64,000 nt of DNA from an uncultured Chloroflexia bacterium. GTDB taxonomy: Bacteria > Chloroflexota > Limnocylindria > Limnocylindrales > CSP1-4. Shown piece by piece: positions 43,508 through 59,831 of this stretch. Location: positions 67,718-131,717 of the forward strand of contig CAVTIN010000003.1 of the NCBI GenBank assembly GCA_963734895.1, read 5' to 3'. The translations under genes and the position numbers were made by a program. Within the stretch, counting starts at the first letter, position 1. The number at the start of each line of letters is the position of its first letter. The notes beneath the pieces were generated by a model. The model had not been told where the DNA came from, did no database searches, and worked only from the letters and a program-made list of their open reading frames with translations.

Positions 43508-43801
43508 ATGGGCATCGGCGACGCACGAGCGGCGGACCTGACGGTGTTCGTCGACACGGATGCCTCGATCACCGTCGATGTCGGGTCGCGGTTCGTGCCG
43601 GTGGGCAACGAAGATCTTGAGCGGATCCTGGACCGCCTCGCAGCCGACGGGGGCACGCTGCGGCTGCTGGGTGCCCCCGATCGGGCCGATGACGGAGATG
43701 AGCCGCCCGACCGCGAGAGCGACCCCGCGGTGGGGGCCGCGTCGTACGTGCTCGCCCTCGCCCATGCGCGTGGGCTCCAGGTGATCCGCGAGGACCGCTG
43801 A
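43508..43801 (+). CDS. hypothetical protein
   Basis: ATG 43508 (MGIGDARAADLTVFVDTD..), 97 aa, with no recognisable motif. Confidence 0.45.
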   Translation: MGIGDARAADLTVFVDTDASITVDVGSRFVPVGNEDLERILDRLAADGGTLRLLGAPDRADDGDEPPDRESDPAVGAASYVLALAHARGLQVIREDR

Positions 43802-43802
43802 C

Positions 43803-44254
43803 ATGGCGCCGAAGGCAGCATCCGCTCGCGCCTTGCCCGGCGCTTCGATCCCGTCGAGCTGCGGGCCATCAAGCGCCTGTGGATCCGGCACTCGATCGCG
43901 GAGGATGCCCGGGACATCGATGGGCTGATCGCGACGCTGGCCCCCGATTGCGTCTACGAGATGGTGCCGACGGGCCAGCGCTGGGAGGGGCACGAGGGGG
44001 CGCGGGCGTTCTACACGGAGCTGTTCGCGGCGTTCCCGGACAACCGGTTCGGGCTGACCGACATCGTGGTCGGTCCGCAGGGCGTGTTCGAGGCCGCGCA
44101 GCTGACGGGCACCAACCTCGGCCCGTGGGCGGGCGTACCGGCCTCCGGCCTGCCGGTCAGCCTGGGCGTGCTGATCCTGTTCCCGTGGGATCCGGCCACC
44201 AGGCTGTTCCGCGGCGAGCGGATCTGGTTCGATCGGGGCGCCGTCGGCGGCTGA
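43803..44254 (+). CDS. SnoaL/NTF2-like (ester-cyclase-like) protein, apparently interrupted by a 1-nt deletion near 43836-43841
   Basis: The conserved frame (..FDPVELRAIKRLWIRHSIAEDARDIDGLIATLAPDCVYEMV..) opens at 43802 but has no ATG, GTG or TTG before 43961. ATG 43803 is in another frame. 452 nt plus 1 gives 151 codons. Confidence 0.6.
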
Positions 44255-44292
44255 GACGTCGGCCGCACGCCGGGGCGCCGCGGGTCGCGGCG

Positions 44293-44336
44293 GTCACGGC
44301 GCGCCTCGTAACGTTCTCCGAACGGAACGGGTCCAG
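44293..44336 (+). promoter_or_regulatory. heptamer-repeat element upstream of paralog P1
   Basis: GTCACGG 44293, GTAACGT 44308, CGAACGG 44319 and GGAACGG 44324, followed by CAGAAT (44334-44339) 9 nt before the ATG. 28 of 39 ungapped positions are identical to the P2 upstream block. Confidence 0.5.
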
Positions 44337-44348
44337 AATGCGGAATCG

Positions 44349-45590
44349 ATGACCAGCTCCGTTCGAAACCGCTCGACGACGCCAGCTTTCCCGACGGCCG
44401 CGGAGACAGGTCGTTCGCTTCCCCTACCCGGCCGGATCATCGTTGTGCTGGTGGCCGCGGGCGCCGTCGTCGTCGGCGCACCCAGCGGTGTCGGGCTGCT
44501 GTGGGCGGTCCCGTACGGGGCCGTGGCGACGATCCTGATCGTCCGGAGACCACGACACGCGATCGGCTGGATCCTGCTCGTGCTGGGATGGATGTTCCCG
44601 CTCGCGTCCGCCACGCTCGATATGACGCCGGCCCAGTTCTCAGGTGGCTCCCTGACACCGCTGACAGCGGTCGCGGGCTGGCTCATCGCCACCGCCGGGT
44701 CCGCAGGGTTCGTGCTCTTTGCGACGCTGATGTTCACCTTTCCCTCCGGGCGCTACCCGGGGGGCCGATGGCGCTTCCTGGCGCCCGCGCTGCTCGCCAT
44801 CGCGTCGGCGACAGTCCTGGTCTCGGCGCTCGCGCCGAGGATCAATGTGGGCTTTCAGGGCAACCAGACGAGCGTGTCCGTCGCCAACCCGTTCGCGATC
44901 ACGCCCGGGGCCGCGATCTGGAACGGGATCCCATACGAGCTGAGCTTCATCGTCCAGATCGCCGTCATGGCGATCGCTGCCATCTCGCTCGCGAACCAAT
45001 TCGGTGGGACCAGTGGGATCGAGCGCCAGCAGCTTCGATGGGTCGCCGCCGCGCTCGGCTTCGTCGTGCTCGCCGTGCTCGGCGGCCTGGCACTCGGCGG
45101 GATCTTCCCGGACCTGAGCTCAACGGGCTTCATCTGGATCCCTGCGATGCTGGCCTTCGCGTCAGTTCCCATCGCGGTGGGCGTCGCGATCATGCGCTAC
45201 CGGCTGTACGAGATCGACCGGATCATCAGCCGGACGCTCGGTTGGACCGTCACCACGATCGTCGTGGCGGCGGCCTTCGGCGGCCTGATCGTTGGTCTGC
45301 AGGCGGCGCTCGCGCCGTACACGAGCGAGAGCACCCTCGCGGTCGCGCTCTCGACGCTCATCGCGGCGGCCCTGTTCGGGCGCGTGCATCGCGGCATCCA
45401 GGCGACCGTGGACCGTCGGTTCAACCGGACCCGGGTGGATGCGCAGCGGGCCCTCGACGCGTTCGGCAGCGGGCTGCGCGACGTGACGGCCCTGGACGCG
45501 GTCCATGCCCGCCTCGAGGACACGATCCGGGCGACGGTCCAGCCGCGGGTCGTCGGCGTCTGGACGCGCGCCGGCGGGCCCGGGGAGTAG
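44349..45590 (+). CDS. paralog P1 of a ~10-TM membrane protein family with a conserved C-terminal RYRLYxIDR / VDRRFNR module
   Basis: Motifs RRPRHAIGWILL, FPSGRYPGGRWR, IERQQLRW, MRYRLYEIDRIISRT and VDRRFNRTRVD. Confidence 0.8.
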   Translation: MTSSVRNRSTTPAFPTAAETGRSLPLPGRIIVVLVAAGAVVVGAPSGVGLLWAVPYGAVATILIVRRPRHAIGWILLVLGWMFPLASATLDMTPAQFSGGSLTPLTAVAGWLIATAGSAGFVLFATLMFTFPSGRYPGGRWRFLAPALLAIASATVLVSALAPRINVGFQGNQTSVSVANPFAITPGAAIWNGIPYELSFIVQIAVMAIAAISLANQFGGTSGIERQQLRWVAAALGFVVLAVLGGLALGGIFPDLSSTGFIWIPAMLAFASVPIAVGVAIMRYRLYEIDRIISRTLGWTVTTIVVAAAFGGLIVGLQAALAPYTSESTLAVALSTLIAAALFGRVHRGIQATVDRRFNRTRVDAQRALDAFGSGLRDVTALDAVHARLEDTIRATVQPRVVGVWTRAGGPGE

Positions 45591-45732
45591 GGCGGGCCGC
45601 GTTCGCCCAGTCGGGGTGCCCCAGGCTGACCACGTAACAGGCAGGAACGGCATCGCGACCGGCGACCTGTGGCGAGCCGGTCGCGATGATTGAGGGAGGG
45701 ATACCCGGGCGTCCCCGGCATGGGTGGACGCG

Positions 45733-46377
45733 TCAGTGGCGGCCGCTCATGAACGTGCCGTTGACCTGGTCGGTTGCCCGCTGGGTCACCTGGTCCTTCA
45801 TCGCATCGGCCTGGGCCTGGGTGATGGTCCCGGCGGTGACCTTGGCGGCGAGCTCGTCGAGCCCGTCCTGGACGAGGGCGTCGATGACCTTCTGCGTGTC
45901 GACGTTGTTGGCCTTCGCCACGTCGGCGATCGTCTGGCCATTCTGGAGCGCGGTGTTGAGGTCGGCCTCGGTGATCCCGATCGCCCTGGCGACGACCGAG
46001 GCATCGCTCACGGCTTCGTCGTGGCCGAAGCCGCCGGGGCCACGGTCAGGACCGTCGGGTCCGCGGTGATCGCGGCCGGGTCCGCGGTGATCGCCACCGG
46101 GACCGCCCGCGTCGCCATCGGCCGGCGGATTACCGCTTGCCGTCGGCGCGTTTGGTGTGGCAGGACTGGGCGACGCGGCGTCGGCCGCGAGCGGTCCGAC
46201 GAGCGCGGCCGCGGCAAGGCCGCCGGCGACGATCGTCCCGATCGCGGCGAACCTGAGGTTTCGCCGGCGGCCGGGGCCGGGCGTCACGGACCTACCGGAT
46301 GGCGCCATGGTGGGGCCATTTGACGTCCCTTCTTCGGCAGGCGCGAAGGGCGCCAGGATCTCGTCGTCTCGGGTCAT
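45733..46377 (-). CDS. secreted or membrane-anchored helical-repeat protein (tentatively YckD/DUF2680-like)
   Basis: ATG 46377 (MTRDDEIL). TM/signal anchor LRFAAIGTIVAGGLAAAALVG. Gly/Pro/Arg linker. A tail, GTITQAQADAMKDQVTQRATDQVNG, resembles the YckD-type TxxQA..K repeats. Confidence 0.55.
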   Translation of the reverse strand: MTRDDEILAPFAPAEEGTSNGPTMAPSGRSVTPGPGRRRNLRFAAIGTIVAGGLAAAALVGPLAADAASPSPATPNAPTASGNPPADGDAGGPGGDHRGPGRDHRGPDGPDRGPGGFGHDEAVSDASVVARAIGITEADLNTALQNGQTIADVAKANNVDTQKVIDALVQDGLDELAAKVTAGTITQAQADAMKDQVTQRATDQVNGTFMSGRH

Positions 46378-46510
46378 GGATGGTTCCTTCGAGGTCCGGC
46401 CGGCAGCTGCCGGGTCTGCGGGACGCAGGGTTGCGATCCACGCCCCGGACTCTGGGGCGTCCATCCTTTCGATCCCGTGACGAGCCCGGACGCACTGCCG
46501 AGGGAGCGCC

Positions 46511-49422
46511 CTACCAGGCGACAAGCTTCCAGATCTCCGGCTCCAGCTCGCCGGGGTTCCCACCGACCTCGGCGAAGATCGCCACCGCCTGCTTGAGGTG
46601 CGCCATCGCTTCGTCGGTCCTACCCACGGCGTGAAGCTGGTCCGCGAGGCTGTTCTCGACGGCCGCCTCGAGGTGGCGCTCGCCCGTTCGGCGGCACTCC
46701 TCGAGGGCGGCCTCGAGCAGCGCGATCGCGGCAGCCCGATCGCCGGCGGCTGCCTCGACCAGGGCCAGGGCATTGCGGGCCGCGATCGCCGCCCCTGCAT
46801 CCGGATCCGCCTCCGCCAGGGCGAGACTCTGCCCCAGGGACACCCGCGCGGCGTCCAGATCGCCGGTCTCACGAGCAACCAGCCCCAGAATCCGGTGGGC
46901 GGCGCCGGCACCCGGACCGTCCCCGACCGCCTCGGCGATGCCGAGCGCGCGCGACGCGGCGAGGTGGGCAAGGTCGAGCTCGCCCGCGCGGTGGGCCACG
47001 ACAGCCCGCTCGACGAGCGCCCGCGCGAGAAGATGGGCGCCGGTCGCCGTCGCGCCAAGCTCGAGCGTCGCGACCGCCGCGTCCAGGTGGCTGGCCGCCG
47101 TCGCGAGATCGCCTCGGCGAGCGTGAACCCTCCCGAGCCGGAGCTCGACCCTCGGAAGCTCGTCGTCGGACGTCGCCGCTGCGGCGGCCTCGAGCGCCGC
47201 GATGGCGCCCGCGTAGTCACCCAGCGCCATTCGCACCTCGCCGAGCAGGAGCTGGATCTCGGCGACCTCGGGGTGCCCCAGTGCGATCGCGGTCTCAAGG
47301 TGGGCGGCAGCCTCGCGGTTGGCGAACAGCGACACGGGCCTGGACGCCGGCCTGGCGGAAGGCATCAGCCGCCTCCGCCTCCCGGCCCGCCGCACGCTCG
47401 TGGATCGCGACCTGGACAAGGCGGCCGGGGTCGTCCCGGCCCCCGCCCTCGGCCCGGAGGAGCTCGGCGGTCCGACGATGGAGCAGGCGGCGACGGGCGA
47501 GGCTGGTCGCGTCGTACGCGGCGTCGCGGAGCTTGGCGTGCGCGAAGTCGAAGGCGACCTCCGGAGCCGCCGGGAACCTCGCGGACGATGCCGCGCCGGA
47601 CCAGCTCCTCGAGCGCCGTCACGGTCTCGTCCTCGGAGCGTCCGCTCGCTCCTCGGACGAGCGGCAGGTCGAACGAGCGGCCGATCACGGCGGCGGCCGA
47701 CAGCACCTGTCCGGCCGTCTCGCTGACCGTTGCGAGGCGCTCCCGCAACAGCGCCCTCACGCTTCGGGTGGGACCTTCAACGGTGCTCGTGCCGGCAGCG
47801 AGCGCTTCCACGACGAACAGCGGCAGGCCCTCGCTCTCCTCGAGCAACGCGTCCGCCGCCATCGATGGCCCGCCCATCGTCGACGCCGCGGCAACCAGCC
47901 GCTCGACGTCGTCGCCATCGAGCCGCCGGAGGGGGACGGAAACCGCCGACGGCAGGGCGTCGACGGTCGCCGCGAACGCCGAGGCAAGATCGTCGAGATC
48001 CTCGGGCCGCCACGTGAGCAGGAGCAGCAGTGACCGCGATCCTCGAGACGGCGAGCGAGCCAGGCGAGCGCCTCGCGCGACGCGTCGTCCGCCCACTGGA
48101 TGTCCTCCACCGTGATCAGGCCCACCACCGGACCCGCCACCAGGGCGGCCAGCGCGCCGGCGATCGCCTCGAGAAGGCGAGCGCGTGCGGCCGGCCCGTC
48201 CTCCGCCACACCCCGGACGTCCCCTGCACCTCGCGGATCAGAGAGCTCGGCCGGCAGTGGCACCAGACGCCCGAGCTCGTCGAGGGTGTTGGGCGGCAGC
48301 CGTCGAAGACGTTCGATCGCATCCGGATGGCTGAGCCCGACACGGAGCAGCCCGACGATCACGCCGTAGGCGATGCCCGTCTCGGAGGCGAACGATCGCG
48401 CCACGATCACCGCGCCGCCGTGCCGCGCTCACCTCGGCGCCGAGATCTTCGGCGAGCCTCGACTTGCCGATGCCTGCCTCACCGGTGACGTATGCGACCC
48501 GCCCATCGGGGGCGGCGTCGCGGTGCGTATCGCGCAGCACGGTCATCTCGCGGGCTCGCCCGACCAGTGGCAGGCGGCCCGGGGCCGACGGCGCGGGCAC
48601 GAGGCGCGCGCCCACGGGCGGCGGGAGCTCGCCCGGGTCGCCGGTCCGGGCGGCGGTCCGGACACGCTCGTCGCGGATCGCCTCGTACAGCGCTGTCGTC
48701 TCGGCGAGCGGCGTGACGCCCAGCTCGCGCTCCAGACCCGCGACGCACGCACGGTATTGGCGGATGGCGCCGGCCCGGTCCCCGGATCGGGCGAGGAGAA
48801 GCATCAGCCGGCGCTGTGCAGGTTCGTCGAGCGAGTCGAGCTCCAGTCGCCGGGTCGCCGCGGCCACGGCCGCCGGGAGGTCGCCCTCCGCCTCGGCGGA
48901 GCTGGCGAGCCGGTCCAGCACGCGGGCAACGGTCCGTTCCACCGCAACCGCCCGCGTCGCCCGCCAGTCATCGAAATCCGGGCTGTCGCGGAGGGAGAAC
49001 CCGGACAGGAACGGGCCCCGAGCGGCCGAGGACGCCTCACGGAGGGGGGCGCTCGACGTTTCGGCGTCCGCTGCCTCAACGATCGCGAGGTCCATCCACG
49101 TCCCGGTGGCATCGAGCGCGACCGTGGACCGGTCCACCCGCAGCCATCGGTCACCGAGCGCCGACCGCAGCACGGACAAGGTGCGCCGGAGCGCCCCGCG
49201 GGCGGACTCGTCGTCGGACTCGGGCCAGAGCATGGCGGCCAGCGCCTCGCGGGCGAACGGCCGGCGCTCGGTAGCCAGCAGCGCAAGGATCGCGAGGGCC
49301 TTGCGCGTGTCCACGACGAGCGGCGCGCCATCCACCCGCACCTCGAGCGGTCCGAGCACGCGGATCTCGAGCGTGTCGCCCTGCGCGGCCTGGGGAGGGG
49401 GCGGAGCGGCGGGTCGGGACAT
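46511..49422 (-). pseudogene. AfsR/SARP-family regulator (OmpR-type wHTH + BTAD + P-loop NTPase + TPR) broken by four single-nt frameshifts
   Basis: The pieces lie in four frames. (1) LEIRVLGPLEV..BTAD..GEAGIGKSRLAEDLG. (2) VIVARSFASE..VEDIQWADDASREALAWLARRL. (3) LLLLLTWRPEDLDD..LEELVRRGIVREV. (4) VAFDFAHAKLRDAAY.. then the TPR tail ..FANREAAAHLETAIALG..KLVAW. 2912 nt minus a net 2 gives 970 codons. Confidence 0.85.
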
Positions 49423-49424
49423 CA

Positions 49425-49485
49425 CGCGTAACGGTACCGCGGCGTCACGGGATCTCGTAACGTTTCGGGAACGGTTTCGTCCCAG
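49425..49485. promoter_or_regulatory. heptamer-repeat element in the divergent SARP/P2 intergenic region
   Basis: GTAACGG 49428, GTCACGG 49444, GTAACGT 49457 and GGAACGG 49468. The last two are 11 nt apart. CAGCAT (49483-49488) lies 8 nt before the P2 ATG. Confidence 0.5.
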
Positions 49486-49496
49486 CATGCGGTGCC

Positions 49497-50705
49497 ATGA
49501 TCGCGTCCCAGCAACTGCCCGGCCGCGGCCGCCTGGTCTCCAGGGCCGCTCCAGGAAGCCCCTGGATACGGGTTACCGTCGCAATCGCCGGTCTGCTCGC
49601 CGTGGGCGGCACGGTCGCCCGCTTGTCGGGCGATCCGACGGGCTGGCACCTGTCCCTCGTGTTCCTCGCCACATCGCTCAGCTACCTGGTCGTGGGCGCA
49701 CTGATCGTGGAGCGACGGCAGGGCAACGCGGTCGGGCCGCTCGTCCTGGCGCTCGGGCTGCTGCTGGTCGGGTACGTGACCCTCGATGCCTACATCCGCC
49801 AGCCCGCGGGCGCCTTGGCCGCCGCACATGCCGCGCTCGTCGTGAGCCTGACCGACGGCCCGATGTTCTTCCTGGTGGCGATGCTGTTCCTGGCGTTTCC
49901 GGACGGCCACCTGCCGAGCAGCCGCTGGCGGACCCTGGTCGCCCTCGATGGCGCGATGGCCGCGGCCGTCTTCCTGGGCGCGTTGCTGCGGCCCGGTCGC
50001 TACCCGTTCTATACGTGGCTCGAGAACCCGTTCAACCCGCCGATGACGGTCCTGACCGAGGTCTGGGAGCTCACCTACGGGTTGACGGTCGTGGGTGTCG
50101 CTGCGGCGGCGCTTTCGCTCGTCGGGCGCTGGCGACGCGGTGACCTCGTTGAGCGCGCCCAGCTCAAGTGGGTGGCGGGGGCCGCGACGCTGGCGGCTGC
50201 CGCGATGATCGGCTACGGCGCCGGAGCGGGCCCCAGCGACTATTCGGATGCCGGCGACTTCGCCGTGGGCCTGTCGCTCGGCCTCTTTCCCGTCGCCATC
50301 GGGATCGCGGTCCTGCGGTATCGCCTGTACGAGATCGACCGCCTGATCAGCCGAACCCTGGCCTGGGCCCTCGTGACGGCGATCCTGGTGGGGCTGTTTG
50401 CGATCGTGGTCGTCGGCCTCCAGGCGCTTCTTGCCGGGGCGACGCAGGGCGACACGCTGGCGGTCGCGGCATCGACCCTGCTCGCCGCTGCCCTGTTCCA
50501 GCCGCTGCGCGCTCGAGTCCAGCATGCCGTCGACCGGCGCTTCAACCGCTCACGGATCGACGCAGAGCGGACGGTGGCGGAGTTCTCCGATCGCCTCCGC
50601 GACGAGATCGACCTGGACCGGCTGCACGGCGCCGTCATCGCAACCGCTCGCACCGCGGTTCACCCGGCCGGCGCCGGCCTGTGGCTTCGCCGGGAGGCCG
50701 AATGA
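49497..50705 (+). CDS. paralog P2 of the ~10-TM membrane protein family
   Basis: Motifs FPDGHLPSSRWR, VERAQLKW, LRYRLYEIDRLISRT, FQPLRARVQHAVDRRFNRSRID and LWLR. Confidence 0.8.
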   Translation: MIASQQLPGRGRLVSRAAPGSPWIRVTVAIAGLLAVGGTVARLSGDPTGWHLSLVFLATSLSYLVVGALIVERRQGNAVGPLVLALGLLLVGYVTLDAYIRQPAGALAAAHAALVVSLTDGPMFFLVAMLFLAFPDGHLPSSRWRTLVALDGAMAAAVFLGALLRPGRYPFYTWLENPFNPPMTVLTEVWELTYGLTVVGVAAAALSLVGRWRRGDLVERAQLKWVAGAATLAAAAMIGYGAGAGPSDYSDAGDFAVGLSLGLFPVAIGIAVLRYRLYEIDRLISRTLAWALVTAILVGLFAIVVVGLQALLAGATQGDTLAVAASTLLAAALFQPLRARVQHAVDRRFNRSRIDAERTVAEFSDRLRDEIDLDRLHGAVIATARTAVHPAGAGLWLRREAE

Positions 50706-51046
50706 TGGCGACCACCACCGGGCCGGTGCGCAAGGAGCTCGGCATAGGCGCGACGGCGCACGAGACGCTGCCCCGAGCGGTGGCCGTCATCGTCTACGTG
50801 GCACCGGTCGCGGTGCTCATGCTCCTCCTGGGTGGTGCGTGGGCGGGCGGCGCGCTGGCCCGGGACCTGCTGGTCCCGAACCTTGCCTGGGTCATCACGT
50901 CGTGCGGTGCCGACGCGTTCGGTGCCGGGTTGCGCGAGCAGGTCGATCTGGGCGCCGTATCGAAGAGCACCCTCGCGACGGTTGCGCAGGTGATTGAGCC
51001 CTCGGGTGTCGCGCTGTGGCTTCGTTCCGGACGGGGGACACCGTGA
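50702..51046 (+). CDS. mini-paralog: single-TM protein carrying only the family's C-terminal ~45-aa tail
   Basis: Its ATG overlaps the P2 stop (ATGA). The tail DAFGAGLREQVDLGAVSKSTLATVAQVIEPSGVALWLR aligns with DAFAERLRDQVELGEIHGDIHQTVHSTMRPTHVGMWLR of P6. Confidence 0.5.
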   Translation: MMATTTGPVRKELGIGATAHETLPRAVAVIVYVAPVAVLMLLLGGAWAGGALARDLLVPNLAWVITSCGADAFGAGLREQVDLGAVSKSTLATVAQVIEPSGVALWLRSGRGTP

Positions 51047-52269
51047 TCTCGGGCGTGGCGCGCTCCCCCCGACCCAGGCTGGTCGCTGCAGCCAGCATCG
51101 TGTTCACGGGCACGCTGTGCGTGATCGCCCTTGGCCTGCTCGCGGCCACATGGTCGGTGGAGGTCCCGGGCACGTGGTCCGTCCGCGGATTTCCGATCGC
51201 GATCGCGGGCACCTGCGTGGCAATCGGGGCCATCGTCGTGGTCCGGGTGCAGGGAAACCCGATCGGGTGGCTGTTCCTGGCCGCCGCAATCCTGTCGGCG
51301 ATCGAGGGCGCCTGCGATCAGTACGCGACGCTGGCCCTCATCGCCGAGCCGGGCGCCCATGCCGGAGGAGAGGTCGCAGCCTGGGTCGCCGGCTGGATCT
51401 GGATCCCGGCCATCGCGCTGGTGACCGTGTTCCTGCCGCTGGTGTTCCCGGACGGCCGCCTGCTGAACTCGCGTTGGCGTCCGATCGTTTGGCTCGATGG
51501 CGGGGTGGTGGCGCTCGCGACACTGGGTGCCGCCGTGCTGCCGGGACCACTCGACAACGCCGCCTATCTGTCCAATCCATTCTCCGTCGACATCGGCATC
51601 CGGCCCGAGCTGCGGTGGATCGCCTACCTGCCGCTCATCGTCGCCATCTTCATCGGCGCCAGCGCCCTCGTGCTCCGGTTCCGCCGGTCGACCGGGGAGA
51701 GCCGCCAGCAGCTCAAGTGGCTTGCGTTCAGCGTCGCGGTCTGCGGCCTTGTGTTCTGGGCCGTCCCACTGGGCAAGCTCGGCGCCCTTCCACCGGGCGG
51801 CGCCAAGCTCACCGAGATCGTGGTCACGGCGGGCATCCTGGGCATCCCGATCTCGGCCGGTGTCGCGGTCCTCCGCTACCGGCTGTGGGATATCGACCGG
51901 ATCGTCAGCCGCACCATCAGCTACCTGATCATCAGCGCCGTGCTCGCGATCATGTTCGCGGTGACCGTTGTCGGGCTGCAGGAGGTGTTGAGCCCGCTGA
52001 CGGGCCAGAGCACGGTCTCGGTCGCCGCGGCGACCCTGGTCGCCTTCACCCTGTTCCAGCCGTTGCGCCATCGCGTCCAGGCGGCGGTCGACCGCAGGTT
52101 CAATCGGGCGCACATCGATGCCCAGCGCGTCCTTGACGCGTTTGCGGCCGGGCTGCGCGACGATGCGGCCCTCGACACCCTCAGCGCACACCTCGAGACG
52201 GTCGTCGCACGCTCGATGCAGCCCCGGTCGGTCGCCGTCTGGACCCGCGAGGGAGGGACCGCGCGATGA
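51043..52269 (+). CDS. paralog P3 of the ~10-TM membrane protein family
   Basis: GTG 51043 overlaps the upstream stop (GTGA). Motifs GNPIGWLFL, FPDGRLLNSRWR, ESRQQLKW, LRYRLWDIDRIVSRT and VDRRFNRAHID. Confidence 0.8.
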   Translation: MISGVARSPRPRLVAAASIVFTGTLCVIALGLLAATWSVEVPGTWSVRGFPIAIAGTCVAIGAIVVVRVQGNPIGWLFLAAAILSAIEGACDQYATLALIAEPGAHAGGEVAAWVAGWIWIPAIALVTVFLPLVFPDGRLLNSRWRPIVWLDGGVVALATLGAAVLPGPLDNAAYLSNPFSVDIGIRPELRWIAYLPLIVAIFIGASALVLRFRRSTGESRQQLKWLAFSVAVCGLVFWAVPLGKLGALPPGGAKLTEIVVTAGILGIPISAGVAVLRYRLWDIDRIVSRTISYLIISAVLAIMFAVTVVGLQEVLSPLTGQSTVSVAAATLVAFTLFQPLRHRVQAAVDRRFNRAHIDAQRVLDAFAAGLRDDAALDTLSAHLETVVARSMQPRSVAVWTREGGTAR

Positions 52270-52322
52270 GGGCGTTCCGTCCGTTGACGGTGTCGCGCCC
52301 TTGGACTGCCCGGATGGCGATC

Positions 52323-52384
52323 ATCTCAGAGATCGCCGTTGTGGCCGGACGGGACTGGCAGATCTCAGAGATCGCCGTTGTGGC
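52323..52384. promoter_or_regulatory. two copies of a 23-nt element, each with a central palindrome, 39 nt apart, in the P3-P4 gap
   Basis: ATCTCAGAGATCGCCGTTGTGGC occurs at 52323-52345 and 52362-52384. The second copy reads GATCTCAGAGATC, with perfect 6-bp inverted arms. Confidence 0.45.
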
Positions 52385-52459
52385 AGCCGGGACGGTCGCC
52401 CATGCCTTGGGCCCGAACGGAGCTGTGGTCTGGATCCGGCCAACTCGAGGAGGGACTTG

Positions 52460-53650
52460 ATGAGGCTCGGGCGGTGGCGGGTCATCCCGTATCTCATCCT
52501 GGCAGCGCTCGTCCTTGCGCCCTCCGTCTGGGCTGGTCAGGACTGGAGTGGCTGGTTGATCGTGGGCTCGTTCGCAGCCGTGGGCCTGGTCCTGCTCTGG
52601 CAGCGGCCACGAGAGGTCGTCGGCTGGCTCCTCCTGGGCATCGCGGTCGCCTTCTCCGCGCTCGGGGTCAGTCTCCCGGGCTCCGCGTCCCAGGTCGTCG
52701 ACGGCCACGCTGACACGGGAGTCACCATCTACGCCTGGTTGAGCGCGTGGAGCGCGAGCCTCTTCTTCGGCGAGTTCGTCGCGCTGGCGACGCTGTTCCC
52801 GAGCGGGCGGTTCTCGGCGGGGCGGGTCGGCCTGGCAGGGCGGATCGCGGTGGCCATCCCGCTCGGCTTCAGCGCCGTTCTGGCGTTCGCACCGAGCTGG
52901 CAGATGACCTTCACCGACGGGTCGACGGCGCGGGTGCTCCTGCCGTTCGCGGTCATGCCCGACTGGCCCGGCTGGCCGGTGCTGGACAACCTCGTCTACA
53001 TCGGCGTTCTCGCGGCGCTGGTCATCGCCGTCGGGACTCTGATCGTCCGGTTCCGGCGGACGCGCGGCCCGGAGCGCGAGCAGTACAAGTGGCTGCTCGC
53101 CGCGCTCGCGGCGACCCTGGCGGCAGTGATCTTCGCGTTCGCCGTGATCGTCCTTGTCGACGCCAACGGCACTTGGATGTGGTGGCCGGCAGTGCTCGCC
53201 TACCCGACCATCCCGGCCGCGATCGGGATCGCGATCCGCCGCTATCACCTATACGACATCGACCGGATCGTCAGCCGGTCCGTCTCGTACCTCGCGGTCA
53301 CCGGGCTCCTGGCGGCCGTGTTCGGTGGCCTGGTGGTCGCGCTGCAAGCACTGCTGTCGGGCATCACCCAGGGCGGCACCCTTGCCGTGGCAGCTTCCAC
53401 GCTGGCCGCGTTTGCGCTGTTCCAGCCGCTGCGACGGCGAGTCCAGCTGGTGGTCGACCGCCGGTTCGACCGAGCGCGCGTCGACGCCCAGACGACGGTG
53501 GACGCCTTTGCCGAGCACCTGCGCGACGAGCTGGACCTCGCGACCCTGCACGACTCCCTCGTGGCGACGACCCGTGCGGCCATGCGGCCGGCCAGCACCT
53601 CGCTGTGGCTGCGCAACGTTTCGACATCGCAGGTTGCCGAGGTTCCGTAA
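52460..53650 (+). CDS. paralog P4 of the ~10-TM membrane protein family
   Basis: ATG 52460 is preceded by GAGGAGGGA. Motifs PREVVGWLLL, FPSGRFSAGR, PEREQYKW, IRRYHLYDIDRIVSRS and VDRRFDRARVD. Confidence 0.8.
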   Translation: MRLGRWRVIPYLILAALVLAPSVWAGQDWSGWLIVGSFAAVGLVLLWQRPREVVGWLLLGIAVAFSALGVSLPGSASQVVDGHADTGVTIYAWLSAWSASLFFGEFVALATLFPSGRFSAGRVGLAGRIAVAIPLGFSAVLAFAPSWQMTFTDGSTARVLLPFAVMPDWPGWPVLDNLVYIGVLAALVIAVGTLIVRFRRTRGPEREQYKWLLAALAATLAAVIFAFAVIVLVDANGTWMWWPAVLAYPTIPAAIGIAIRRYHLYDIDRIVSRSVSYLAVTGLLAAVFGGLVVALQALLSGITQGGTLAVAASTLAAFALFQPLRRRVQLVVDRRFDRARVDAQTTVDAFAEHLRDELDLATLHDSLVATTRAAMRPASTSLWLRNVSTSQVAEVP

Positions 53651-53779
53651 CGATGTCCGACGCTCGACCACTACTCACCGGACGAAGTCGACCGGGACAG
53701 CGTCGCGAGCCCAACGTGGAGGTTGGCGGGCGGTCACCGAAGCATCATCGCGGCCTCCGACGACGCACGACCGTGGCCT

Positions 53780-53800
53780 CCGTAACGATTTCGGGACGCG
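53780..53800 (+). promoter_or_regulatory. GTAACG-type heptamer pair upstream of the small secreted protein gene
   Basis: CCGTAACGATTTCGGGACGCG contains GTAACGA 53782 and GGGACGC 53793, 11 nt apart. It is near-identical to the P2 core CGTAACGTTTCGGGAACGG. Confidence 0.4.
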
Positions 53801-53861
53801 CGACCGGTTGAATTTGGCCACGCAGCCCGCCCCCTGGAGCTGCCGCAGTTGGAGGCCACCG

Positions 53862-54281
53862 ATGCGTCGCATTCTCGCCCGCTCGATCCTCGCCGGAACG
53901 CTGATCGCCACCATCGGCGCCGGAACCGCGCTCGGACACGAGTGCTTCATCGCCAGCCGGTCGGACACCGGCAATGTGACCGCAGGCACGCACTCGCGCG
54001 CGTGGGTCTACATCGGGAGCCTGTCTGAGCTGTTTGGGCTCCTGGCCGACGATACCGGCCTTCCACCCCTGTCGGACAGCCAGCTCGCGTGGGCTGTCGG
54101 CGAGGCGAGGGCGGCGGGTATGCCGAACGAGTTCTCGATCTTCATCGGCAACCACACCATTGCCGAAGGCACGCCGGCCATGGCCAAGCACGCGGCTGAT
54201 GGCCGGGGGGTCGACCATCTCGGTGACTGGTTCCCCGCGGCGGTCCAGATCTACATGGCGGCCCTCGCTCCTCACGAGTAG
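53862..54281 (+). CDS. small secreted protein, unknown function
   Basis: GGAGG lies 6 nt upstream of the ATG. The signal peptide is MRRILARSILAGTLIATIGAGTALG. The predicted mature N-terminus starts HECF. Confidence 0.65.
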   Translation: MRRILARSILAGTLIATIGAGTALGHECFIASRSDTGNVTAGTHSRAWVYIGSLSELFGLLADDTGLPPLSDSQLAWAVGEARAAGMPNEFSIFIGNHTIAEGTPAMAKHAADGRGVDHLGDWFPAAVQIYMAALAPHE

Positions 54282-54307
54282 GGACTTCGCAGCGGCGATT
54301 GGCAACG

Positions 54308-54343
54308 GGCCAGGCCCTCCCCCCGGGGGACGAGGGCCTGGCC
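54308..54343 (+). terminator. strong GC hairpin after the small secreted protein gene
   Basis: GGCCAGGCCCTC (54308-54319) and GAGGGCCTGGCC (54332-54343) are perfect 12-bp arms. There is no T-tract, which is common in high-GC actinobacteria. Confidence 0.55.
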
Positions 54344-54429
54344 GCGTCCCCAGCGGCCGTCAGGGTTGCCCCAGCGGCCGACCATGGTGATCAGGAGACG
54401 CGCGAGGCATCCGCGCAGGAGGTCCACCG

Positions 54430-54495
54430 ATGCCAATGAACGAGGCGCCTGTGGCGCGCCAGCCGAAGCAGCGGCTCAACCGCAGCCGACGATGA
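54430..54495 (+). CDS. possible 21-codon leader ORF translationally coupled to P5
   Basis: AGGAGG (54417-54422) lies 7 nt before ATG 54430. The peptide is MPMNEAPVARQPKQRLNRSRR. Its TGA overlaps the P5 ATG (ATGA at 54492-54495). Confidence 0.3.
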   Translation: MPMNEAPVARQPKQRLNRSRR

Positions 54496-55709
54496 CCGGC
54501 GGTCTCTCCGGGACAACGTGGCGACGGCCTGGGGTCTGGGCTGCCGGCGTCCTGCTGGCGAGCACCGTCGGAATGGTGTGCTTCGCGTTCGTCCTCGCGG
54601 TCCTGCCAGGTACCGAGCAGCTGGCCGGTCGACCTGGCGAGACTAACCCGCTCGGGCCGGTCAGTGCCCCGGTCGTGCTGGGCGTGCTCCTCACGTCGCC
54701 TGCCGTTGGCGCGATCCTCGCTGTTCGCCAGCCATCCAACCCGATCGGCTGGCTGTTCCTCCTGATCGGGTTCGGCTTCTCCATCTACGTCTTCTCCTGG
54801 GGGTATGTCGGTCGGAGCGTCGGGCTGGGTGCCGACCTGCCCGGCTATCGCCTGGTCGACTGGGTTGCTTCCTGGTCGATCACCGCTGCAGTCGGGCTGG
54901 CCGTGATCTGGGTCCCTATGTTGTTCCCGGATGGTCACCTGCCAGGCTCGCACTGGCGCCCTGTCGCCTGGGTGGCCGCCATCGGTACCGCCAGTCAGGT
55001 CGCGGTCGAGGCGCTGACGACCAACGGGATCCTGCCCAACCCGATTGCCGCCGACGGTCCCGTGACCGATGCCCTCAAGGCGCTGGGCGTCTTCTTCCTC
55101 GTCGGGGTCCTCGTGGCGATCGCGGCAGTGATCGTTCGTTACCGGCGATCCCGCGGTCCCGAGCGCCAGCAGCTCAAGTGGTTCCTGGCGGCCGCCGGCT
55201 ACATGGCGATCGTGCTCCCCATCGCCGGAGGGACCGGCAATGAGCTGGCCTTCTACCTCTTCATGCTCGGGATGATCGCGATCCCCATCGCCATCGGGAT
55301 CGCGATCCTGCGATACCGGCTGTACGACATCGACCGCCTGATCAGCCGCACCATCGGCTGGGCGCTGGTGACCGGGATCCTGGCCGCCGTGTTCGTGGGC
55401 GTCGTGCTCGCCCTCCAGTCGCTGTTGGCCGGGTTCACCCAGGGCGAGACCCTCGCGGTCGCGGCATCCACGCTGGCCGCGTTCGCGCTGTTCCAGCCGC
55501 TGCGGCGGCGGATCCAGGTTGCGGTCGATCGGCGGTTCGACCGGGCCCGGTACGACGGGCAGCTCACGGTCGATGCGTTTGCGGAGCGGCTGCGGGACGA
55601 GGTGGAGTTCGCCGAGATCGATCGGGACATCCATCGCGTGATCGACGATGCCGTGCGCCCGACCCATGTCGGGATGTGGCTGCGCGAGCGCCAGGGAGCA
55701 GGCCGGTGA
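54492..55709 (+). CDS. paralog P5 of the ~10-TM membrane protein family
   Basis: Motifs SNPIGWLFL, FPDGHLPGSHWR, PERQQLKW, LRYRLYDIDRLISRT and VDRRFDRARYD. The start is uncertain: ATG 54492, ATG 54384 or TTG 54366. Confidence 0.8.
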   Translation: MTGGLSGTTWRRPGVWAAGVLLASTVGMVCFAFVLAVLPGTEQLAGRPGETNPLGPVSAPVVLGVLLTSPAVGAILAVRQPSNPIGWLFLLIGFGFSIYVFSWGYVGRSVGLGADLPGYRLVDWVASWSITAAVGLAVIWVPMLFPDGHLPGSHWRPVAWVAAIGTASQVAVEALTTNGILPNPIAADGPVTDALKALGVFFLVGVLVAIAAVIVRYRRSRGPERQQLKWFLAAAGYMAIVLPIAGGTGNELAFYLFMLGMIAIPIAIGIAILRYRLYDIDRLISRTIGWALVTGILAAVFVGVVLALQSLLAGFTQGETLAVAASTLAAFALFQPLRRRIQVAVDRRFDRARYDGQLTVDAFAERLRDEVEFAEIDRDIHRVIDDAVRPTHVGMWLRERQGAGR

Positions 55710-56893
55710 CGGCAGCCCGCGTCACCCGCCCCGAACCTGCCGTGCCGGCCCGCCGCCGGCCGACCACCTGGCTCGCCCTCGTCCTGCTGGCCATCGCCCT
55801 GGGCATGGTGGGCTTCATGTTCGCCTCGGCCATGCTCCCCGGGCACGAGCGCCTGTCGACCGCGGTGGAGGAGGGGCTGGACGTCATCCCGATCCTCGCG
55901 TCATTGGCGGCGGTCCTTTCGCTTGCCGGCGTCGGGTGCGTGCTGGCGGCGCTTCGTCCACGCAACCCCATCGGCTGGGTCTTGCTGGTCGGGGGCGCGA
56001 CCTTGATGCTCAGCGATTTCACGACGAGCTACGTGGAGCGCAGCACCGTGGTCGAACCCCTTCCCGGTTACCGGCTCCTGGAGACCTTGTCGCCCTTGTT
56101 CGCGTCACTCGCCATCCCACTCCTGACCGTCTGGCTTCCGCTCCTGTTTCCGGATGGGCGGCTGCCAGGGCCGCGTTGGCGGGTCGTGGGCGCGATCGCC
56201 ACGATCTACACGGTCGCTGCCGTCGCGCTGACGCTGGTGCCGGCGCCCGAGCTCGTGGGGGAGGCGATCAGCCCGATCGCAGGGGGATTGATCGCGGCCG
56301 CCCTCGTCGCGCTCATCGTGCGCTTCCGGCGCACGCATGGGGCGGAGCGCCAGCAGGTGAAGTGGTTTCTGGCGGCGGTCGCGCTGCTCGCCGCGTCGAT
56401 GCTCGTGCTGGCAGCAACGCACAACGAGTGGGGGTGGGCGCTCATGCTGCTCTCCCTCGCGTTCCTGCCCATCGCCATCGGCATCGCCGTCCTCCGCTAC
56501 CGGCTGTACGACATCGACCGGCTGGTCAGCCGCACGATCGGGTGGGCGCTGGTGACCGGGATCCTGGCTGCCGTGTTCGTGGGTGTCGTGATCGGCCTCC
56601 AGGCGCTGCTCTCGAGCTTCACCCAGGGTGAGACGCTCGCGGTGGCCGCGTCCACGCTGGTCGCATTCGCCCTGTTCCAGCCGCTGCGACGGCGGGTCCA
56701 GGTTGCGGTCGATCGGCGGTTCGACCGGGCGCGGTACGACGGGCAGCGCACCGTTGATGCGTTTGCCGAGCGGCTGCGCGATCAAGTGGAGCTCGGCGAG
56801 ATCCACGGAGACATCCATCAGACAGTGCACTCGACCATGCGGCCGACACACGTCGGCATGTGGCTTCGGCGCGCCGGCGACCAAGCCCCCTAG
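55706..56893 (+). CDS. paralog P6 of the ~10-TM membrane protein family
   Basis: GTG 55706 overlaps the P5 stop (GTGA). Motifs RNPIGWVLL, FPDGRLPGPRWR, AERQQVKW, LRYRLYDIDRLVSRT and VDRRFDRARYD. Confidence 0.8.
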   Translation: MTAARVTRPEPAVPARRRPTTWLALVLLAIALGMVGFMFASAMLPGHERLSTAVEEGLDVIPILASLAAVLSLAGVGCVLAALRPRNPIGWVLLVGGATLMLSDFTTSYVERSTVVEPLPGYRLLETLSPLFASLAIPLLTVWLPLLFPDGRLPGPRWRVVGAIATIYTVAAVALTLVPAPELVGEAISPIAGGLIAAALVALIVRFRRTHGAERQQVKWFLAAVALLAASMLVLAATHNEWGWALMLLSLAFLPIAIGIAVLRYRLYDIDRLVSRTIGWALVTGILAAVFVGVVIGLQALLSSFTQGETLAVAASTLVAFALFQPLRRRVQVAVDRRFDRARYDGQRTVDAFAERLRDQVELGEIHGDIHQTVHSTMRPTHVGMWLRRAGDQAP

Positions 56894-56922
56894 ATCAGAG
56901 TCGGCCGCCTGGAGAGAGCGCA

Positions 56923-57350
56923 ATGTCATTCACGATCGAGGATACGTACGATGCCCCGGTGGCGACGCAGCAGCGATCTATGCCTGCTACACCGACGCGT
57001 CCACCTGGCACCTCTGGGGCCACAACACGAGCGGCGCGCAGGCCCGGACGCTGGTGGAAGAGGGTGCGATCGTGGACGTCAAGGTCCGCCGCTACCCGTG
57101 GACGTATGCGGTCCGCGTCCTCGAGGTTGATCCGGGTCGGCGCGTGGTCTGCGAGGTGAGGCCCGTCGGCGTGCGGATCGTGCAGTCGTACGAGGTCGAG
57201 CCAATCGCCGACGGAGCCCGGATCCGCCACGTGTTCACGGTCGCGGGTCCGCTCGAGCGCGGGTACAAGCTGCTCGCCGGCCAGTACACCAAGCTGCTCG
57301 CCCGCGAGACCCGCGCCCTGGCCGCCTACGTTCGACGGGGTCGTGCCTGA
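56923..57350 (+). CDS. SRPBCC/START-like (polyketide-cyclase-fold) protein, apparently interrupted by a 1-nt deletion near 56953-56962
   Basis: GGAGAGAG precedes ATG 56923 (MSFTIEDTYDAP). The rest (AAIYACYTDASTWHLWG..VRIVQSYEVEP..) is in another frame. 428 nt plus 1 gives 143 codons. Confidence 0.65.
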
Positions 57351-57375
57351 CAGAACCGATCATGGATGACGTGGT

Positions 57376-57433
57376 GTTACGTGACGATATCGGAGCGTCA
57401 CCATTGTTCGTAACGATATCCGGACGCTTCCAG
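57376..57433 (+). promoter_or_regulatory. GTAACG-type heptamer cluster upstream of the partner-switching operon
   Basis: GTTACGT 57376 and GTGACGA 57381 come first. GTAACGA 57410 and CGGACGC 57421 follow, 11 nt apart. CAGCTT (57431-57436) lies 12 nt before ATG 57449. Confidence 0.4.
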
Positions 57434-57448
57434 CTTGAGGATCAGGTC

Positions 57449-59099
57449 ATGACAGCACTGACTCGTCCATTCCGGCGCCTCCTTCGCCGGCCCGCGCCAG
57501 ACGGCCGCCGGCTTCGCCGTCGCGCCGCCCGCCGAATGCCTGCCGAGCAGCCCGGCGTGTCCATCGACATCCCGGAGACCGACCCGCTGTTCGCCTACCT
57601 GCAGTCGGCACCCGGGCCCGGTGGATCTCTTGCGCCTGGAGCTGGCGTCGCCGGCCCTCACCGAGCTCCGCGAGGCCGGCGTGGCGCTTGTCGTGCCGCT
57701 GGTGACCCAGGGTGAGCTGATCGGCACCCTCAACCTCGGACCACGGCTGTCCGAGCAGGAATACTCCACAGACGACCGCCGGCTCCTGGCCACGCTCGCC
57801 GCCCAGGCCGCGCCCGCCATCCGCGTCGCCCAGCTCGTACGCGAGCAGGCCGCCGAGGCCGCGGAGCGCGAGCGGTACCAGCAGGAGCTCAAGGTCGCGC
57901 AGCTGATCCAGCAGCAGTTTCTGCCGCGCGAGCTGCCCAACTTGCCCGAGTGGCAGATCGCCGCGTACTACGGCCCGGCGCGTGTTGTCGGCGGCGACTT
58001 CTACGACTTCATCGACCTCGGGGACGGCAGGATCGGCGTCGTGGTCGGCGACGTGACCGACAAGGGCGTGCCGGCGGCGCTGGTCATGGCCCGAACCCAC
58101 TCCATTCTGCGCGCCGAGGCGCCGCGCCTGGTCGAGCCCGGCAAGGTGCTCGCTCGCGCCAACGAGCTGCTGGTGCCGGAGATGCCGGCCCGCATGTTCG
58201 TGACCTGCCTTTACGGCGTCCTGGAGCCCGCGACCGGCCGCTTCGTGTTCGCGAACGCTGGCCACAACCTGCCCTACGTCCGGACACCGGATGGCGTCAT
58301 CGAGCTTCGGGCAACCGGCCTGCCGCTCGGCCTCATGCCGGGCATCGAGTACGAGGAGACCGAGGGCTCCGTGGGCCAGGGCGATGCGATGCTGCTCTAC
58401 TCGGATGGCCTCGTAGAGCAGCACGGGCCGGGCCGCGAGATGTACGGCTTCCCGCGCCTGCGCAGCGCGATGGAAGGTGCCGATGCCGGGAGCGAGCTCC
58501 TGGACCGGCTGCTCGAGGAGCTGAAGGCGTTCCAGGGTTCGGAAGTGGAGCAGGAAGACGACATCACGCTCGTCACCCTCCGACGGTCGGCGGGTGTGAC
58601 CGAGGGGGCGTGGTCCGAGGTTCGCCCCGAGGTCGAGGTCACCCGTGACGACGAGCCGTCCGAGGTCCTCGCTGCAGAGCCCCTGCTCACGTTCACGATC
58701 CAGGGCGCGATCGGCAACGAGCGCGCGGCCATGCAACGGGTGGCCGACGTGGTCGCGCCGCTGGGGCTGGAGCCTGCGCGACTCGAGCGCCTCAAGACCG
58801 CCGTCGCCGAGACCGTGATGAACGCGATCGAGTACGGATCGCAGGGCGATCCTGAGGTTCCCGTGGACGTGCGCGTGGACGCCGATGACGCGGCGATCCG
58901 CATCCGGGTCACGGACCGGGCCCTGTCCGGACCGGTGCCCGACGTCGAGATGCCTGACCTGAACGCCAAGCTCGAGGGTCTCCAGAAGCCCCGTGGCTGG
59001 GGCCTGTTCCTGATCCGCCACATGGTCGACGGCATGGACGTGCACGTCGCCGATGGCCTGCAGACCGTCACCCTCACCCTCGCCCGGGACGGGCGCTGA
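57449..59099 (+). CDS. GAF + PP2C (SpoIIE/RsbU-type) phosphatase fused to an RsbW-like HATPase anti-sigma-kinase domain; 1-nt insertion near 57611-57620
   Basis: ATG 57449 (MTALTRPF..DPLFAYLQSAPGP) shifts frame into VDLLRLELASPAL.. PP2C motifs GGDFYDF, GDVTDKGVPAA, YSDGLVE and DDITLV are present. The C-terminal ERLKTAVAETVMNAIEYG..GWGLFLIRHMVD matches an RsbW-type domain. 1651 nt minus 1 gives 550 codons. Confidence 0.8.
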
Positions 59100-59114
59100 C
59101 CGATGGAGGCAGCC

Positions 59115-59477
59115 ATGAACGAGCAGCGGCTCGACATCGAGGTCGTCACATCGACCGCCGGCGAGGCCCGGCTCGCGATGCGCGGCGACGTGGACATCGC
59201 GGCGGACGAGGCGCTTGCCACCGCGTACGCGACCGCGGCGGCAGGGGGCGCCACGCGCGTGGTCCTCGACTTCAGGAGCGTCGACTACATCAACTCGACC
59301 GGCATTGCGCTGATCGTCCGGCTGCTCGCAGAGGCCCGCCGCGATCACCGAGAGGTGATTGCCGAGGGGCTCACCGACCACTACCGGGAGATCTTCCGGA
59401 TCACCCGGCTGTCCGATTACCTCACCATCGCCGACGGCGTCTCGGCAGGCAGCGTTCCAGAGGAGGGCAACCGATGA
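59115..59477 (+). CDS. STAS-domain anti-sigma-factor antagonist (RsbV-like) 1
   Basis: The VVLDFRSVDYINSTGIALIVRLL core has the conserved Ser in DYINSTG. GGAGG precedes ATG 59115. ATG 59103 is also possible. Confidence 0.8.
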   Translation: MNEQRLDIEVVTSTAGEARLAMRGDVDIAADEALATAYATAAAGGATRVVLDFRSVDYINSTGIALIVRLLAEARRDHREVIAEGLTDHYREIFRITRLSDYLTIADGVSAGSVPEEGNR

Positions 59478-59818: not shown

Positions 59819-59831
59819 ACGGAGCACTCCC

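Follow-up and report, generated by a model that had tools for sequence, protein, structure and literature searches.

The block shared by the upstream regions of P1 and P2, two paralogous membrane-protein genes of an uncultured Limnocylindria-type Chloroflexota, is probably a SARP-activated promoter that dispenses with a -35 element, yields leaderless or near-leaderless mRNAs and is read by the SARP regulator encoded beside it. What was observed, in the 64,000-nucleotide stretch of DNA analysed here (the window), in the remainder of its genome and in relatives, is the motif with its geometry and conservation, together with its co-occurrence with a particular gene set and with the regulator gene.

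In the proposed mechanism, two imperfect direct repeats one helical turn apart would replace the -35 element, with an upstream unit (DRup), YCGTAACG(WT), at about -40..-33 and a downstream unit (DRdown), YCCGRACG, at about -29..-22, when the hexamer is set as -12..-7. A housekeeping-type -10 element, nAnnAT, would follow 9 bp further downstream (CAGAAT for P1 and CAGCAT for P2), and transcription would start 0-4 nt before the ATG. Two SARP-domain copies of an AfsR-like STAND regulator would bind the repeats side by side and recruit RNA polymerase, in the manner of AfsR at the afsS promoter. Among the P genes, the predicted regulon includes P1, the run from P2 to P4, P5 and P6 behind a secreted-protein gene, and two copies on other contigs; it would also include a GAF-PP2C-RsbW-like gene together with its two STAS genes. 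The SARP protein as binder, the activation and the position of the transcription start are predictions made from the DNA. The coordinates of the features are collected in Table 1.

Table 1. Genes and candidate promoter elements in the analysed window.
Feature	Position	Strand	Remarks
SnoaL-like gene	ends 44254		before block 1
P1 promoter, DRup TCGTAACG	44306..44313	+	~-40..-33
P1 promoter, DRdown TCCGAACG	44317..44324	+	~-29..-22, 11 bp after DRup
P1 -10-like hexamer CAGAAT	44334..44339	+	9 bp past box, 9 nt before ATG 44349
P1	44349..45590	+	413-aa multi-pass membrane protein; family not covered by a dedicated Pfam model
Small secreted-protein gene	45733 to ~46400	-	
Large SARP (AfsR-like) regulator gene	46511..49422	-	wHTH-BTAD, AAA_16 P-loop, TPR
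GCGTAACGGTAC	49425..49436	-	in many clusters kept at exactly 29 nt before the P2-type box
P2 promoter, DRup TCGTAACG	49455..49462	+	
P2 promoter, DRdown CGGGAACG	49466..49473	+	
P2 -10-like hexamer CAGCAT	49483..49488	+	9 bp past box, 8 nt before ATG 49497
P2	49497..50705	+	402-aa P1 paralogue; heads the run P2, mini-paralogue, P3, P4
Third site: box CGTAACGATTTCGGGACG, 9 nt, TTGAAT	53781..53813	+	34.9 bits
139-aa secreted-protein gene	from 53862	+	followed by P5, P6 and an SRPBCC-type gene
Fourth site: box CGTAACGATATCCGGACG, 10 nt, GAGGAT, 6 nt, ATG 57449	57409..57442	+	
Part-GAF + SpoIIE-type PP2C + RsbW-like HATPase_c_2 gene (PP2C gene)	from 57449	+	one frame break
Two STAS genes	59103-59818		

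The block upstream of P1 and P2

An earlier note on this DNA had described an ungapped match of 28 of 39 positions between 44305-44343 and 49454-49492, and recomputation returned exactly this value. The sub-blocks it listed as common to both copies (CTCGTAACGTT, AACGG, CCAG and ATGCGG) were found in both, and the distances from the end of the block to the ATGs at 44349 and 49497 are the 5 nt (P1) and 4 nt (P2) originally given. For the best 39-nt segment of the two 150-nt upstream regions, 28 matches occurred in one of 1000 dinucleotide shuffles, and the same number was reached in one of 1000 comparisons with random genomic 150-mers. Within the block, the 11-nt and 6-nt cores are 100% identical.

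The N-terminal coding regions had been said to resemble each other less than the block does, and this holds, with 49% nucleotide identity over the first 120 codons against 72% in the block. Over the whole gene the nucleotide identity is 53% (global protein-guided alignment for both coding values), and BLASTP aligns P1 with P2 only from residue 121/124 onward, at 40% identity. Conserved coding motifs elsewhere in the two genes reach 33/39 identity, so that the block is not the single most similar stretch of P1 and P2. A longer duplication that would extend over the coding sequence at equal identity is absent, the coding regions being far less conserved than the core of the block.

Comparison of the upstream regions of relatives places the core of the block at a fixed position in 26 of 36 same-genus genomes, as well as in clusters of distant MAGs, and at these loci, orthologous and paralogous, the flanks and spacers vary while the core stays. 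The proposal of a shared cis-element under selection, rather than a residue of duplication, is therefore supported, since the core is kept in relatives and is also found before non-homologous genes. The heptamer GTCACGG does precede each block (44293-44299 and 49444-49450), as had been noticed, but it is not a conserved feature, its spacing to the block being 5 nt in one case and 3 nt in the other. It was also rejected as a functional element: its spacing varies, GTCAC occurs upstream of only 3 of 120 related sites, and the information content of the zone in question, -20..-4 relative to the box, is about 0 (122 sites).

The box motif and its occurrence

The common core of the P1 and P2 blocks, CGTAACGTT-N4-GAACGG, was converted into the search pattern CGTAACGNT-N4-GRACG, and the footprint of the motif was drawn from 122 distinct sites, gathered from all loci fetched from relatives. 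The conserved part is an 18-bp box, CGTAACGWT-N4-GRACG, whose halves, YCGTAACG (positions 0-7) and YCCGRACG (positions 11-18), form an imperfect direct repeat in an 11-bp register and agree with each other at only about 6 of 8 positions. Across the 122 sites, positions 0-7 are invariant or Y and position 8 is A or T, and positions that the pattern left free are still conserved (Y at 0 in 96%, T at 9 in 96%, C at 12-13). Further signal is found downstream of the box, namely A at +29 (88%), A at +32 (56%) and T at +33 (80%); the 9-nt spacer between box and hexamer and everything 5' of position 0 carry about 0 bits.

The 2.5-Mb genome to which the window belongs contains five matches to the pattern and a sixth site with one change, each a short way upstream of a gene and on its coding strand. 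From base composition, about 0.35 chance matches were estimated for a core that is slightly shorter, and the pattern reversed as a control has none. Four of the at least six sites of this genome lie in the window (44307, 49456, 53781 and 57409), and the two remaining ones precede P paralogues on contigs C13 and C15. In 36 same-genus genomes, about 90 matches, often clustered, were counted, against 4 for the reversed control. The pattern is at background level in a sister family with small genomes, and in 300 Chloroflexota genomes scanned it is at background in most, with a few enriched patches. Enrichment confined to patches of the phylum indicates that the box is not a general promoter feature of Chloroflexota.

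A PWM trained solely on other genomes was run on the genome of the window, where it ranks the P1 site first, at 39.2 bits, and also recovers the P2, 53781, 57409, C13 and C15 sites; on a shuffled contig it gave zero matches. Orthologues of the PP2C gene found by protein search alone carry the box in all 24 cases with an available N-terminus, and their promoters read CGTAACGATGTCCGRAC(G/A), 9-10 variable nt, GAGGAT, 6-7 variable nt and ATG. Weaker matches to box plus hexamer, of 21-28 bits, were recorded at G000:C4:36863 and, on the minus strand, at C2:104627 and C5:118976; the genes behind them are a small membrane-protein gene, an unidentified ORF and an SRPBCC-like gene, and these are possible further members of the regulon.

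The large SARP regulator gene

The regulator gene and P2 are divergently arranged, and the 74-nt gap between them holds the second block. In the assembly of the window, the regulator is readable only across about four frame changes (46511-49422), and an intact orthologue of 968 aa is present in the related genome G006 (L038:9168-12074). The BTAD domain is recognized with an E value of 6.5e-16 in the fragment from the window and of 1.3e-21 in the G006 orthologue, in which AAA_16 (E 6e-23) and TPR_12, TPR_2 and TPR_14 were also identified, and residues 29-273 of the orthologue align to EmbR (2fez, E 2e-8) and to the SARP domain of AfsR (8hvr, E 7e-5). The domain plan is that of a large SARP, with an OmpR-type wHTH and BTAD at the N-terminus, a central P-loop ATPase of NOD/NB-ARC type and C-terminal TPRs. 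The NCBIfam equivalog model for AfsR (NF053617) is matched at 75.7 bits, below its cut-off of 1430; the regulator belongs to the AfsR-like family but is not AfsR itself.

In at least 24 of 30 clusters, including those in MAGs labelled Gaiellaceae and Chloroflexota, an AfsR-like SARP gene and the first box are in divergent orientation, the box lying at most 220 nt from the 5' end of the regulator gene. Although 24 regulators compared share no more than 44-75% identity overall, their recognition-helix stretch, ARGALRRTLSVLR, hardly varies, in keeping with the invariance of the box. On the regulator's own strand, GCGTAACGGTAC reads TACCGT, followed after 8 nt by the ATG of the regulator, and the same geometry is seen in G006 (L038:12010-12024). 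TACCGT is likely the -10 element of a leaderless regulator mRNA, with a half-box embedded in it, and a half-box inside this -10 region might allow autoregulation.

Frame breaks are also seen in other genes of this genome. The PP2C gene has one frame change within its first 55 codons (57600-57630), and the C13 paralogue is likewise split (G000:C13:45340-45520). The orthologues of the broken genes are intact in G006, and the breaks fall in short runs of G/C rather than in long homopolymers. Given these other single-base breaks, and relatives that are mostly long-read MAGs, sequencing error is a plausible origin of the breaks. If those in the regulator gene are genuine, this genome has no working activator, and the boxes would be relics or serve another factor.

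The frameshifted state of the SARP gene in the window's genome is one of several observations compatible with a different reader. The box would then still be a genuine promoter-proximal operator, bound by another winged-helix regulator encoded elsewhere (an orphan of OmpR, PhoB or GlnR type), with the SARP a member of the regulon or unrelated to it. Repeats spaced by 11 bp are common to the whole OmpR-type class, and the fact that any winged-helix protein of this class could read them counts against the assignment to the SARP. The core of the box, GTAAC-n6-nGRAC or AC-n9-AC, resembles the GlnR box of actinomycetes, gTnAc-n6-GaAAc, with which it shares the AC-n9-AC core, the 11-bp register and an OmpR-type reader. 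In its second half, however, the box has SGRAC where the GlnR box has GAAAC; it contains only one a-b pair, nitrogen genes are not among its targets, and it is a SARP gene that is found in the clusters, no GlnR-like gene having been seen there. PhoP and AfsR are known to share sites (PMC10936776), and the C13 and C15 boxes are far from the SARP gene. Nevertheless, we regard a reader other than the SARP as unlikely. The divergent arrangement of SARP gene and first box recurs in distant lineages, the recognition helix shares the near-invariance of the box, and no response-regulator gene was seen in the clusters; moreover, a regulator outside the co-inherited accessory island would need to be present in every recipient.

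The -10-like hexamer and the predicted start of transcription

In 93 of the 122 sites, exactly 9 bp separate the box from a hexamer of the form nAnnnT, any other offset being found in at most 7. Its variants (CAGAAT, CAGCAT, CATCAT, GACGAT, GAGGAT and similar) have in common only the A and T typical of -10 elements, with 88% of the 122 sites having A as the second base (A2) and 80% having T as the sixth (T6). Orthologues of P2 have CATCAT, GAGCAT or GAAGAT at this place, followed by CCGGTGCC-ATG. At 17-18 bp upstream of the hexamer the sequence reads ACGWTN, which is no good -35 element, in keeping with SARP promoters, and no sigma-70 -35/-10 consensus was found in the region of the P1 or P2 block.

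In 57 of 92 sites, 6-10 nt (peak at 6 nt) separate the hexamer from an ATG or GTG that opens an ORF, and the distance from the start of the hexamer to the ATG is 15 bp for P1, 14 bp for P2 and 12 bp for both the 57449 gene and the C13 paralogue. In leaderless genes, a TANNNT signal precedes the start codon by about 12 bp (PMC3160421). A -10-like signal of this kind and at about this distance is found here, with the A2 and T6 of the hexamer in common and a hexamer start 12-15 bp before the ATG; the difference lies in the first base, which here is mostly G or C, not T. The mRNAs from the box promoters are thus most likely leaderless or nearly so, judging by this spacing, although the gaps between hexamer and ATG of P1 and P2 (9 and 8 nt) exceed the 6-7 nt that would best suit a strictly leaderless start. 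The fixed distance of the block from the start codon would then be due to near-leaderless transcription, not to a structured leader.

Some sites have a long leader with a separate GGAGG near the ATG. They comprise those of L030, L036 and L011 among the relatives and, in the window, the third site, which has an orthologous site in L042 and is followed by a 48-nt leader with GGAGG before the ATG of the secreted-protein gene and then P5 and P6. Since these sites have a GGAGG of their own, the hexamer appears to be a -10 element and not a ribosome-binding site. A Shine-Dalgarno function of the hexamer, considered in view of the GAGGAT 6-7 nt before the PP2C ATG, was rejected as the general reading, most hexamers being not purine-rich and only A2 and T6 being conserved.

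The same geometry bears on the possibility that the two conserved blocks are themselves elements of an alternative sigma factor, for instance one under RsbW-like/STAS partner switching, acting without an activator. A sigma factor is the usual target of partner-switching modules, and both a PP2C-RsbW-like fusion and two STAS proteins are encoded in the island; GGAAC/GRAC resembles the AAC core of ECF -35 elements. However, GTAAC lies 21 nt and GRAC 10 nt before the hexamer, where ECF and SigB/F-type promoters need about 14-17 nt after a -35 of (G)GAAC or GTTT, and a conserved -10 of CGT or GGGTAT type is lacking. The sole downstream signal, nAnnAT, corresponds to A2 and T6 of a housekeeping-type hexamer, and the helical register of the two upstream blocks points to a DNA-binding protein that acts as a dimer. 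Among the genes noticed in the clusters examined there was none for a sigma factor. An ECF/SigB-type promoter was rejected on the grounds of this spacing, and recognition by an alternative sigma factor is altogether very improbable.

The earlier note had left the choice between a promoter plus operator and a short 5' leader, of which the former is upheld and the latter is not (folding z = 0.14 and -0.36, without Rfam match). The blocks folded no better than shuffles (z = 0.14, -0.36, 0.96 and -1.23), and an Rfam search of 43800-50000 gave no match at the blocks and one chance match elsewhere (E 0.69); an RNA leader or riboswitch, having neither a structure signal nor an Rfam match, was rejected. 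That the block is a residue of duplication or an RNA leader element with no part in transcription initiation, as the paralogy of P1 and P2 (through which upstream similarity could be inherited) and the contact of the block with the start codon might suggest, is hardly credible when the core is 100% kept against 49-53% identity in the coding DNA, when the box also stands before non-homologous genes (small secreted protein; GAF-PP2C-RsbW) and in 24/24 PP2C orthologues amid variable adjacent spacers, when the folding equals that of shuffles, and when, with the hexamer as -10, the box would not be transcribed at all.

Gene content and layout of the island

The layout of the island was read from third-position GC and Pfam matches. 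The P family has more than 4000 homologues, mostly hypothetical proteins of about 400 aa, a few of them with a weak HisKA_7TM match. Of the eight P paralogues in the genome of the window, two lie on other contigs. The P array has just one long gap, upstream of P4, which holds a 39-nt tandem repeat with the palindrome GATCTCAGAGATC (52320-52390), and no box is present there.

The best-conserved gene of the island is the PP2C gene, with 82-96% identity among orthologues; it lies behind the fourth site and is followed by the two STAS genes. Its product starts with MTALTRPFRRLL (57449-57490), which resembles the motif FQPLRARVQ of P-family C-termini (e.g. 50590-50705), and its GAF match is confined to profile positions ~40-133. 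What this GAF domain lacks might come from the P C-terminus; when the P2 C-terminus was joined to the PP2C N-terminus, the Pfam GAF score did not rise (36.6 bits, against 36.4 bits unjoined).

At the junction with the PP2C gene, the last P gene ends on a TAA within the box (TCG TAA CG) in L049, L050, L053, L054, L056, L060, L061 and L069, and several such P genes encode W-L/V-R-N-V/A as ..CGTAACG.. 34 nt upstream of the box. In G006, the last P gene (L038:14406-15647) continues across the box, and its end overlaps the PP2C start in an ATGA. An in-frame fusion of the last P gene with the PP2C gene, through recombination or readthrough at CGTAACG (which encodes R-N-V/A), was considered and rejected, since with box-to-ATG distances of 39-41 nt the reading frame is not kept.

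At the other end of the island, the boxed P1 gene and the small secreted-protein gene sit between the SnoaL-like gene and the 3' end of the regulator gene (44255-46510). In L039, L042 and L044 the SnoaL gene directly adjoins the regulator, in L121 the order is that of the window (SnoaL, box, P gene, convergent regulator), and in L097 and L122 a boxed P gene is likewise convergent with the regulator. The interval between SnoaL and regulator is a recurrent insertion point for a boxed P gene.

Distribution across relatives

The relatives compared are MAGs labelled uncultured Chloroflexia or Candidatus Limnocylindria/Limnocylindrales, many of them from one long-read soil survey. Ten of ten 20-kb regions from relatives show the regulator, a divergent box, 2-12 P genes with further boxes, and then a box and the PP2C gene. 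Within the genus, the PP2C gene and the P family (1-18 P genes) occur together in 25 of 41 genomes and are both missing from 15, and just one genome has a single P gene alone. In the box scan of 36 genomes, all 22 carriers of the PP2C gene have 1-8 boxes, and the 14 non-carriers have 0-1. Box, P family and PP2C gene are thus present or absent together within the genus, as one accessory island (~43800-59900 in the window). Clusters of box, P genes and PP2C gene also occur in MAGs labelled Thermoleophilia and Rubrobacteraceae, and such near-identical boxes under the labels of other phyla suggest horizontal transfer of the whole cassette.

Comparison with known SARP systems

In SARP promoters, direct repeats are spaced by 11 or 22 bp, and 8 bp separate the 3' repeat from the -10 element (PMC10936776). 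The halves of the box have the 11-bp spacing, and the last conserved base of DRdown lies 9 bp before the hexamer (93/122), which, with the hexamer assumed to be the -10, is 1 bp off this rule and was accepted as agreement. At the afsS promoter of Streptomyces coelicolor, two SARP protomers of AfsR sit side by side on two 11-bp repeats at -40..-19 (PMC10936776). The promoters described here share with the afs box the 11-bp-spaced direct repeats over or replacing the -35 element and a suboptimal -10; the 8-mers occupy -40..-33 and -29..-22 once the hexamer is set at -12..-7, and the spacing becomes identical to that of afsS if the 11-bp unit is counted (-29..-19). The regulators also agree in domain order, from the OmpR-type wHTH through BTAD and P-loop NOD to TPR.

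Differences from the afs box are the sequence of the repeats, YCGTAACG / YCCGRACG, and the conserved T9 of the upstream unit. AfsR contacts the first 8 bp of each repeat of the afs box (PMC10936776), and the 96% conservation of T9 counts against the SARP reading in that AfsR leaves the last 3 bp uncontacted; the limited agreement between the two halves of the box counts against it as well. The host is an uncultured Limnocylindria-type Chloroflexota and not an actinomycete, most target mRNAs look leaderless, and the targets are membrane-sensor-like paralogues and a partner-switching module instead of afsS or antibiotic genes.

As with the cluster-situated SARPs ActII-ORF4, DnrI, PimR and PolY, which recognize heptameric boxes (PMC10972967), the regulator gene lies inside its own cluster, and several promoters of the cluster bear the same repeats, overlapping the -35 region. 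The distance from the 3' repeat to the -10 is about 8 bp in those systems and 9 bp here, counted from the last conserved base (PMC10972967). In contrast to them, only two repeats are seen here, of the genes noticed only the small SnoaL- and SRPBCC-type ones at the island edges recall secondary metabolism, and the box is little changed across regulators 44-75% identical and across MAGs labelled other phyla.

Implications

The block is probably a known promoter design, a SARP box plus a -10 element, employed here by an uncultured soil Chloroflexota on signalling genes. This would provide a concrete promoter/operator for soil Limnocylindria-type Chloroflexota, for which no published one, and no regulon, was found in a brief literature search. 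It would also place the SARP design in Chloroflexota and on a signalling regulon, the published accounts PMC10972967 and PMC10936776 treating only Streptomyces and other actinobacteria. Box and -10 together make up a compact part of 34 bp, which also predicts leaderless expression. In addition, the large and uncharacterised P family is tied to a partner-switching phosphatase/kinase, which gives it a first functional context.

A broader and rather doubtful proposal is that the whole forms a self-contained mobile signalling island, in which one SARP, an array of P genes (1-18 per genome) and the highly conserved GAF-PP2C-RsbW-like protein with its two STAS partners are wired by one nearly unchanging SARP box. 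The P proteins, orphan and HisKA_7TM-like without an output domain, would act as interchangeable membrane inputs to the shared phosphatase/kinase, and the SARP would set which of these inputs are expressed. The N-terminus of the PP2C protein bears a remnant of the P-family motif QPLRxRxQ, and of a GAF domain the protein retains only the C-terminal two-thirds. If true, the island would represent a new "receptor repertoire" feeding a partner-switching pathway, and would give SARPs a role beyond antibiotic control and beyond the actinomycetes.
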